In this document: piece after piece, positions 9,001-12,000 of the stretch
Layout of the letters: every line of letters begins with the position of its first letter
Numbering within the stretch: position 1 is the stretch's first letter
Origin: Escherichia coli
Lineage (GTDB): Bacteria; Pseudomonadota; Gammaproteobacteria; Enterobacterales; Enterobacteriaceae
Reading direction: 5' to 3' (one strand)
DNA: 64,000 nt
NCBI RefSeq assembly: GCF_048403405.1
Contig: NZ_CP183129.1
Program-made: the position numbers

Positions 9001-12000
9001 ATGCTGGTGTTTTCCAGTACGGATATGCTGTTTAAAGATGACCAGCAGGATACCGAAGCCACGGCGATCGCAAGTGATTTGTTGAGCGGTAAAAAACGCT
9101 GGCAAGCCAGCTTTGGCCTGGAAGAGCGTACTGCCGAAAAAACGCCAGTACGCCAGCGCATCGTGGTCAGCGCCAGGTTGCTGGGGTTTGGCTACCAGCG
9201 ATTAATGCCTTCTTTTGCTGGCGTACGCTTCGAAATGAGCAACGACGGCTGGCATAGCTTTGTGGCGTTAAATGATGAATCCGCAAGCGTAGATGCCAGT
9301 TTCGATTTTACGCCGGTATGGAACAGTATGCCTGCCGGGGCCAGCTTCTGTGTGGCGGTGCCGTATTCGCATGGTATTGCCGAAGAGATGCTTTCGCACA
9401 TCAGCCAGGAAAACGACAAGCTGAACGGGGCGTTAGATGGTGCAGCCGGGCTGTGCTGGTATGAAGACTCAAAATTACAAACCCCGCTGTTTGTCGGTCA
9501 GTTTGATGGCACTGCCGAACAGGCACAACTGCCTGGGAAACTGTTTACGCAAAATATTGGTGCGCACGAAAGCAAAGCGCCAGAAGGTGTTTTGCCGGTA
9601 AACCAGACTCAGCAGGGCGAAGCGCAAATCTGGCGTCGCGAAGTGAGTTCCCGATACGGCCAGTATCCGAAAACACAGGCGGCGCAACCAGATCAACTAA
9701 TGTCGGATTATTTTTTCCGCGTGTCGCTGGCGATGCAAAACAAAACGCTGCTTTTCTCCCTCGATGACACGCTGGTTAATAACGCGCTGCAAACACTGAA
9801 TAAAACCCGCCCGGCAATGGTGGATGTAATACCCACTGACGGCATCGTTCCGCTCTATATCAATCCACAAGGCGTGGCGAAACTGCTGCGTAACGAAACG
9901 CTGACCAGTCTGCCGAAGAATCTCGAACCGGTTTTTTATAACGCCGCACAAACTTTATTAATGCCGAAGCTGGACGCTTTATCTCAACAACCGCGTTATG
10001 TCATGAAGCTGGCACAGATGGAACCCGATGCCGCCTGGCAGTGGCTACCCATAACCTGGCAGCCGCTATGAGGCACGGACTGCTGGCGCTGATTTGCTGG
10101 CTGTGTTGTGTTGTTGCCCATAGCGAAATGCTGAATGTCGAACAGTCGGGGCTGTTTCGCGCCTGGTTTGTGCGTATTGCACAGGAACAGCTCCGACAGG
10201 GGCCAAGTCCGCGCTGGTATCAGCAGGATTGTGCGGGCCTGGTGCGATTTTCGGCGAACGAGGCGCTGAAAGTTCACGACAGCAAATGGCTAAAAAGTAA
10301 CGGCATAGCAAGTCAGTATTTGCCGCCTGAAATGACGCTAACACCTGAACAGCGTCAACTGGCGCAAAACTGGAATCAGGGGAACGGAAAAACCGGCCCC
10401 TATGTGACCGCGATTAATTTGATTCAGTACAACAGCCAGTTCATTGGCCAGGACATAAACCAGGCGCTGCCTGGCGATATGATTTTTTTCGATCAGGGCG
10501 ATGCCCAGCACTTAATGGTCTGGATGGGGCGTTACGTCATCTACCACACCGGAAGCGCCACGAAAACTGACAACGGAATGCGCGCAGTCAGTCTGCAACA
10601 ACTTATGACATGGAAGGACACCCGATGGATACCCAACGATTCCAATCCCAATTTCATTGGCATTTATCGTTTAAATTTTCTGGCGCGATAGCAGCGTGCT
10701 TGTCCCTGTCTCTTGTGGGAACAGGGCTTGCTAATGCTGATGATTCGCTTCCTTCCAGTAACTATGCGCCGCCCGCAGGGGGAACATTCTTTTTGCTTGC
10801 TGACAGCAGTTTTAGCAGCAGTGAAGAGGCGAAAGTGCGACTGGAAGCGCCGGGGCGTGATTATCGGCGCTATCAGATGGAAGAGTACGGCGGCGTGGAC
10901 GTTCGCCTGTATCGTATTCCTGACCCGATGGCATTTTTGCGCCAGCAGAAAAACCTGCATCGCATTGTGGTGCAACCGCAATATCTGGGCGACGGGCTGA
11001 ACAATACGCTGACCTGGCTGTGGGATAACTGGTACGGCAAATCTCGCCGCGTGATGCAGCGTACTTTCTCTTCTCAGTCACGGCAGAATGTGACTCAGGC
11101 GTTACCCGAATTACAGCTCGGCAATGCCATTATTAAACCTTCCCGTTATGTACAGAACAGCCAGTTTTCACCGCTGAAAAAATATCCACTGGTGGAACAG
11201 TTCCGTTACCCACTATGGCAGGCTAAACCGGTCGAGCCGCAGCAAGGGGTAAAACTGGAAGGCGCATCCAGCAATTTCATCTCGCCGCAGCCGGGTAACA
11301 TCTATATTCCTCTCGGCAAACAAGAGCCGGGACTGTACCTCGTCGAGGCGATGGTCGGTGGATATCGGGCGACGACGGTGGTATTTGTCTCTGATACCGT
11401 GGCGCTTAGCAAAGTGTCGGGTAACGAGCTCCTGGTGTGGACCGCGGGTAAAAAAACAGGGTGAAGCGAAGCCGGGATCAGAGATCTTGTGGACTGACGG
11501 TCTTGGCGTGATGACCCGCGGTGTGACCGATGACAGTGGTACCTTGCAGTTACAACATATATCGCCGGAACGTTCATACATTCTGGGTAAAGATGCTGAA
11601 GGCGGCGTTTTTGTCTCCGAGAATTTTTTCTACGAAAGCGAAATTTACAACACCCGCTTGTATATCTTCACCGACCGCCCTCTGTATCGCGCAGGCGATC
11701 GTGTTGATGTCAAAGTGATGGGCCGCGAGTTCCACGACCCGTTGCATTCATCCCCCATCGTTAGCGCCCCGGCGAAGCTTTCAGTGCTGGACGCCAACGG
11801 CAGTCTGTTGCAAACCATCAATGTCACGCTGGATGCGCGTAATGGCGGGCAGGGGAGTTTCCGCCTGCCAGAAAATGCCGTCGCCGGAGGTTATGAGTTA
11901 CGCCTGGCTTACCGCAAACAGGTCTATAGCAGCAGTTTTCGCGTAGCCAACTACATCAAACCACATTTTGAGATTGGCTTAGCCCTCGACAAAAAAGATT

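Follow-up and report, generated by a model that had tools for sequence, protein, structure and literature searches.

The yfaS gene in the 64,000-nucleotide stretch of Escherichia coli DNA analyzed here (referred to as the window) is best read as a commonplace frameshift pseudogene, private to its strain and belonging to a known gene family. On the basis of sequence comparison, we consider it probable that the gene is a recent, strain-private null allele produced by replication slippage in a short run of adenines. The single additional base underlying the frameshift is itself, with somewhat greater confidence, a real mutation of this strain.

Direct reading of the window sequence showed that positions 11450-11456 read AAAAAAA exactly, flanked as GCGGGT-A7-CAGGGTGAAGC. 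Two plus-strand open reading frames (ORFs), one of 284 amino acids (10610..11464) and one of 1290 amino acids (11358..15230), overlap at this run in different frames, and the coordinates and both peptide ends given in an earlier note on this DNA were reproduced. That note had also held that an A6 tract would give one frame of about 1540 codons. Removal of one A from the run indeed yielded a single ORF whose translation is the intact 1534-amino-acid protein of close relatives, or 1539 codons when counted from the upstream ATG at 10610. The start is placed at the equivalent of position 10625 in the K-12 pseudogene annotation and in the gene calls of the protein collection described below, and at GTG 10715 by PGAP. 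In the frameshifted reading, 277 native residues are followed by an out-of-frame Thr-Gly and then by a TGA codon at 11462-11464. The parts of the broken gene are as follows.

11450..11456, plus strand: A7 homopolymer, which is A6 (Lys-Lys, AAA AAA) in intact yfaS; the sole in-gene difference from close relatives.
10625..11464, plus strand: N-terminal yfaS fragment of 279 amino acids from ATG 10625 (284 amino acids from ATG 10610), defined by ORF call and translation.
11457..15230, plus strand: remainder of yfaS, 1257 codons and a stop codon, out of frame with the start, defined by translation and Pfam.

The N-terminal fragment spans the first ~275 residues, with a segment that resembles a signal peptide, and has no Pfam domain, and all recognizable alpha-2-macroglobulin domains (MG2, bait region, A2M, and bMG10) sit on the downstream fragment. 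The antisense ORFs that cross the A7 site (11213..11581 and 11302..11577) gave no Pfam match. Because the window contains 13 homopolymers of at least 7 bases, one of which is a native in-frame A7 elsewhere inside yfaS, a run of seven is not unusual by itself; what is non-trivial is the one base by which it exceeds its counterpart in intact alleles.

RNA polymerase and ribosomes alike tend to slip on runs of A (PMC1088944, PMC5009743, PMC10861913), which raises the possibility that the A7 allele is still expressed as functional YfaS, either because RNA polymerase drops one A or because tRNA-Lys slips by +1 on AAA-A and restores the frame. Past the run, the shifted frame is open for just two codons, and re-pairing after a +1 slip on AAA AAA A would be perfect. 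However, efficient transcriptional slippage takes about 9 A/T (PMC1088944) and the run has 7 nucleotides, the homologues are single-frame with A6 so that no recoding site is conserved among them, and direct reading of the slip site revealed neither a stop nor a rare codon of the prfB kind. Downstream RNA structure was not significant (z = -1.14), no Rfam family was found within 9500-16000, and any rescued product would be a small part of normal output. Recovery of functional YfaS by recoding is, in our assessment, very improbable. Trace +1 slippage on AAA-AAA-A is possible, and if slippage of polymerase or ribosome on A7 restored the frame at a low level, this would speak against a null allele.

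The frame switch had been assigned to the A run in the earlier note, and this placement was borne out by the nearest relatives, which differ from the window in yfaS by one A at that site. Across window positions 10400-15400, the sole difference from the nearest complete genome, NZ_CP042899.1, is that the latter has one A fewer in the run, and alignment of the same interval to many complete E. coli genomes paired 5,001 query bases with 5,000 subject bases. Clone-mates were chosen by possession of the exact window yfaL allele, which gave ~24 contigs; four neighborhood types were shown among them, and three were aligned. A full-length yfaS was called in all four types, and the three aligned clone-mates were identical to window positions 1-14678 (14,678 bp) save for the extra A. 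Over the whole 64-kb window, the differences from the clone-mate isolate 68 (NZ_OX030728.1) amount to 3 SNPs plus 2 indels of one base each, and four positions thus differ besides the yfaS A run. Since the clone-mates are near-identical to the window but carry A6, the extra A is private to the window genome.

We looked for other carriers of the A7 allele by an exact-protein look-up of the products of seven possible fragment starts in a collection of 15 billion proteins. The 279-amino-acid N-terminal product occurred once, on a 1,111-nucleotide ENA metagenome scaffold (ERZ28600597), and the 1247-amino-acid C-terminal product was absent from the collection by the same exact look-up. The scaffold equals the window over 996 nucleotides, A7 included, and its last 115 nucleotides contain 9 mismatches; because the mismatches cluster there, the scaffold is perhaps chimeric and the corroboration weak. 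It may nevertheless be taken as weak yet independent support for the existence of the A7 allele. ENA scaffolds matching a 1239-amino-acid C-terminal fragment were also considered as further A7 carriers and were rejected, as they have N-gaps and A6.

A single-base homopolymer change that is unique among ~4,700 scored genomes and among the clone-mates is also what would be expected if the strain were truly A6 and the deposited assembly had miscalled the length of the homopolymer. Several further observations are consistent with such an artifact. The best match of a RefSeq complete genome to the window is 99.8%, and none reaches 100%; no full-length contig in the protein collection gives the expected fragment pair; and, of the 4 private differences in 64 kb, homopolymer indels make up 2, which is a large proportion for mutations of natural origin. 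Mutation accumulation in E. coli leads one to expect about 1 indel for every 10 substitutions. On the other hand, only 2 indels separate the 64-kb window from its clone-mate, whereas two error-prone assemblies had 4 to 5 gaps in 3.2 kb. Private changes of the window also recur in other data: a Logan read-set assembly with 100% identity over 3.2 kb shows the radD indel (C5->C4 at 61146), a contig one base different from the window carries the ompC W222* substitution, and A7 itself appears on the independently assembled metagenome scaffold. Moreover, a seven-base run is short for errors of the Illumina type. Weighing these points, we regard a miscall as unlikely, though a possibility to be taken seriously, and retain the reading of a true one-base expansion.

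The length of the run across the species was then scored by sequence search. A 34-mer carrying A6, for which megablast can seed only across the tract, matched 3,921 of 5,426 RefSeq complete genomes, 3,678 of them exactly. Together with the A6 found in the clone-mates and in K-12, this result answers the comparison of tract length that had been asked for earlier and agrees with the expectation that intact alleles have A6. The A5 version of the query matched 5 genomes (strains 08-3914, A14, CEC13004, 93_161312, and NCTC9038), and in all five yfaS is annotated as "frameshifted."

For A7, a positive control consisting of a short query on the native A7 at 13390-13396, which is present in relatives, was also without a match. 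This behavior indicates that the BLAST low-complexity filter masks A7 and not A6, and the negative results of megablast with A7-centered queries of 33 to 35 nucleotides are void. Therefore, the test was done with a query of A7 plus 32 nucleotides of right flank, such that the seed lies in the flank and the alignment extends into the run. The query with the majority flank matched 4,556 genomes (4,480 at 100%) and that with the window-type flank matched 383 (239 at 100%); with either query, all top-ranked matches begin at query position 2. As a genome with A7 would rank first, A7 is present at the yfaS run in none of the 4,480 plus 239 exact-flank complete E. coli genomes (~4,700), with the limit that an A7 allele bearing a SNP in the flank would tie with A6 alleles and could be missed. 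Among the exact-flank genomes (~4,700), A6 was found in >99.8%, with five A5 and zero A7, and A6 was likewise found in 7 of 7 JGI metagenome contigs. Within the limit just given, A7 at this run was seen in none of the 5,426 RefSeq complete genomes. Interrupted or altered tracts were met as AAAATA in HS-02, as AAAAAGAAG in WL297, and as GGGG-A6 in alleles of the phylogroup B2 type.

These counts bear on the proposal, raised in the earlier note, that the tract is a slipped-strand ON/OFF switch, in which the run would toggle at high frequency between A6 (ON) and A7 or A5 (OFF) and so vary a large envelope protein. Both contraction (A5 in five genomes) and expansion (the window and one scaffold) have been seen, each turns the gene off, and the product is exported and envelope associated (PMC3735191). 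The distribution of alleles nevertheless gave the proposal no support: the tract is essentially fixed at A6 in the scored genomes, and the clone-mates are uniformly A6. Because some alleles break the run (AAAATA and AAAAAGAAG), it is not conserved as a tract, and Lys-Lys is in any case most commonly encoded by A6. The longer native A7 in yfaS has an equally low level of variants (6 genomes), and unrelated lesions also inactivate the gene, a pattern that resembles decay rather than switching. The ON length would be only 6. Known homopolymer switches have longer tracts, and a contingency tract of 6 to 7 bases would be a short one. Coding A/T runs show evidence of selection against slippage from about 9 nucleotides (PMC1088944). 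A switch at this run is thus very hard to credit, and we return to a sporadic slippage event as the preferred reading.

The yfaS gene of K-12 MG1655 (b4500) is annotated as a pseudogene, as the earlier note had stated, and this raised the question of whether the window carries the same lesion, inherited or convergent. Two positions elsewhere in yfaS are relevant here.

14727..14729, plus strand: codon 1368, intact in the window as TGG (Trp) and TGA in K-12, by comparison with K-12.
13390..13396, plus strand: native in-frame A7 in yfaS, serving here as a within-gene control for the instability of homopolymers, by sequence comparison.

The K-12 gene has A6 at the run, and its single defect is an in-frame change of TGG to TGA at codon 1368 (W1368*), whereas the window has A7 together with the TGG that is also found in intact alleles. 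In addition, genomes derived from K-12 are one base shorter than the window in alignments of this region. The two pseudogenes are alike in that they are the same gene in the same operon place and are likewise nonfunctional, but one carries a nonsense codon at position 1368 and the other a +1 frameshift at codon ~277. The suggestion that they probably share a lesion consequently failed, and we give it next to no chance of being correct.

Additional yfaS lesions were met in the course of these searches. The A5 alleles resemble the window allele in affecting the same run by a change of one base and in leaving a gene annotated as frameshifted; in contrast to the window, they are contractions, and they lie in another allele background (21 to 22 differences in 437 nucleotides). 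At the native A7, six genomes have A6, and the 3 of 3 that were checked are annotated as frameshifted. One +2-bp insertion was encountered as well, as was an internal stop in HS-02. The occurrence of unrelated lesions at several sites in yfaS points to sporadic decay in which homopolymers act as mild hot spots, in agreement with an E. coli indel rate that climbs exponentially with homopolymer length (PMC8510543). These population data show that yfaS has been inactivated sporadically and repeatedly in E. coli by unrelated lesions, which argues that the Mag-like system to which it belongs is dispensable in many niches.

Taken as a recent private null allele, the window yfaS can be accounted for by a simple sequence of events. 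Strand slippage during replication would have added one A to the A6 of codons 276-277 (Lys-Lys). Ribosomes beginning at the normal start would then run through two wrong codons into the TGA at 11462-11464, leaving a 279-amino-acid stub that may carry an export signal and would contain no macroglobulin domain. The downstream 1257 codons have neither a start of their own nor a signal peptide, and a product reinitiated there would not reach the periplasm because it would lack its own signal peptide. We infer from these features that YfaS function is lost in this strain. A role for the intact protein can be drawn from work on Pseudomonas, by which YfaS may act in the periplasm as a protease trap or as a shield for the envelope. 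A polar effect on yfaQ and yfaP is possible. That yfaA, yfaT, yfaQ, and yfaP are all intact fits a recent frameshift event. For annotation, these results mean that the window yfaS should be entered as one frameshifted pseudogene and not as two genes, and be kept distinct from the pseudogene of K-12. Provided that the allele is real, the window strain and its A6 clone-mates constitute a natural near-isogenic pair for the study of YfaS function in E. coli.

Other changes were seen in the same 64 kb. The window contains an ompC W222* nonsense codon, a change in the ompC promoter (-10), a radD frameshift, and gyrA S83L/D87N. The window genome alone combines ompC W222*, the ompC -10 change, the radD frameshift, and the yfaS frameshift. 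Arguably, these side changes, which describe a fluoroquinolone-resistant sub-clone gaining lesions in envelope and repair genes, are more informative than the yfaS finding. It is conceivable, though improbable in our judgment, that the yfaS frameshift was selected rather than neutral, as one of several changes remodeling the envelope of a fluoroquinolone-resistant clinical sub-clone. A magD deletion mutant of Pseudomonas aeruginosa grew better in chlorhexidine (PMC12663445). If the frameshift had been selected, loss of a MagD-like periplasmic shield might, by analogy, be favored under antibiotic or biocide pressure.

The gene lies in a cluster between gyrA and atoB, in which yfaA, yfaT, yfaS, yfaQ, and yfaP are on one strand with ends that overlap or abut. 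The intact neighbors of yfaS are as follows.

8383..10071, plus strand: yfaA (DUF2138), which opens the mag-like operon, intact and with the same sequence as in the relative, by Pfam and comparison.
10068..10691, plus strand: yfaT (PF06672, MagC/DUF1175), intact, overlapping the yfaS start, by Pfam and comparison.
15231..16880, plus strand: yfaQ (tandem DUF2300), intact, its start abutting the yfaS stop, by annotation and comparison.
16885..17661, plus strand: yfaP (YfaP_C/DUF2135), intact, by Pfam and comparison.

A search for promoter and terminator signals in the yfa operon gave none above shuffle expectation. Membership of yfaS in the alpha-2-macroglobulin family, as claimed earlier from the sequence, was confirmed by Pfam, which matched MG2 (3.9e-26), A2M_BRD (6e-18), A2M (3.7e-12), and bMG10 (3.2e-6) on the repaired protein and returned the same matches on the downstream fragment. 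As for the signal peptide that had been claimed for the repaired protein, direct reading of the translation shows an N-terminus that resembles a Sec signal ending in A-N-A. The 1539-amino-acid translation contains no C.EQ, and hence no CXEQ thioester motif, and it has two cysteines, at positions 25 and 1189. A sequence search of the PDB with YfaS gave only a marginal match, to complement C5. The literature held almost nothing on E. coli YfaS, which has been called uncharacterized (PMC10882980).

Judged by these sequence features, YfaS is a type II (thioester-less) bacterial alpha-2-macroglobulin of the MagD class, encoded in a mag-like operon. MagD itself is periplasmic, is bound to the inner membrane through its operon partners, traps protease in a thioester-independent manner, and confers protection against peptidoglycan-targeting type VI secretion system effectors (PMC3735191, PMC5764988, PMC12663445). 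Like MagD (PA4489, of P. aeruginosa magABCDEF), YfaS is a large (~1530-amino-acid) and putatively exported protein in which MG2, bait-region, A2M, and bacterial MG10 domains are present. The absence of CXEQ is a further likeness to the class, as is the presence in the operon of a MagC-family neighbor (YfaT, PF06672) together with DUF2138, DUF2300, and YfaP_C proteins. The comparison, in which YfaS is set beside MagD by description, also brings out differences: the E. coli yfa cluster has five genes and the mag operon six, and the class is described as Cys-free, a description that is not strictly true of YfaS because of its two cysteines. In the window, moreover, yfaS is broken after codon 277. 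The type I alpha-2-macroglobulin of E. coli, ECAM/YfhM, belongs to the same superfamily and has the same domain types as YfaS. It is distinguished by a lipobox Cys, a CLEQ thioester, and a pbpC neighbor (PMC3735191), whereas YfaS has no CXEQ and is encoded in the yfa operon adjoining gyrA and the ato genes.

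The low-complexity filter of BLAST masks A7 but not A6, and short queries centered on a 7-nt homopolymer returned "no match" despite the sequence being present, as demonstrated by the positive control, the native in-frame A7 of yfaS. Just downstream of the yfaS A tract, at window position ~11478-11537, three ENA metagenome scaffolds (L047, L048, and L006) break, carry N gaps, or turn chimeric; these disruptions probably reflect an assembly bubble caused by strain variation where E. coli populations are mixed. The annotation of the yfaS start codon was also inconsistent (window 10610-10715). 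For intact yfaS, PGAP places the start at the GTG that corresponds to 10715, giving a 1504-aa protein that lacks the signal-peptide-like segment of YfaS. In the annotation of K-12 and in de novo gene calls the start is the ATG at 10625 (1534 aa), and a third gene call, in another record, yields 1464 aa.

Other loci in the window carry changes, as follows.

61142-61146, minus strand: indel in radD/yejH, with ORFs at 61121..62329 and 60570..61151
32828-32830, plus strand: premature stop W222* (TGG to TAG) in ompC (32165..33259)
32076: private G-to-T change (GAGAAT to GATAAT), 89 nt ahead of the start of ompC
290-3734: SNP-dense stretch at the autotransporter gene yfaL/ehaC (925..4677, plus strand)
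5853-5855 and 5865-5867, plus strand: Ser83Leu (TTG) and Asp87Asn (AAC) in gyrA (5607..8234)

The radD tract is C4 in the window versus C5 in relatives (G5 to G4 on the coding strand), the second one-base homopolymer indel in the window and one private to its lineage. The indel divides this DNA-repair helicase gene into ORFs of 402 and 193 aa. An identical change was present in 1 of 5,426 complete RefSeq genomes (A1.S1.18, of another lineage, at 98% identity), where the gene is annotated "frameshifted." The exact 402-aa RadD fragment is encoded by 46 contigs from several lineages, one of which matches the window at 100% identity.

The ompC W222* codon is absent from the clone-mates, the near-identical genomes with A6 in the yfaS tract. 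Public read-set assemblies show W222* again in three or more distinct backgrounds, one of them differing from the window by a single base, which suggests convergent porin loss. The same gene also carries the upstream change, which was absent from every other contig examined. The resulting GATAAT lies 17 nt downstream of TTGGAT and corresponds to the ompC -10 hexamer, which the substitution shifts closer to consensus. A simple promoter scan did not list the ompC site around 32076, because its -35 matches at only 3 of 6 positions.

Compared with CFSAN061763, the window is nearly identical outside positions 290-3734, into which ~70 SNPs are packed, together with a 24-bp in-frame insertion in the yfaL PDPDPT repeat (3711-3734). 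This pattern resembles that of an adhesin allele that is variable or has undergone recombination, and the exact allele of the window is common to 533 contig blocks. The two gyrA substitutions are shared with clone-mates L040 to L042, are not found in CFSAN061763, and constitute the classic fluoroquinolone-resistance pair.
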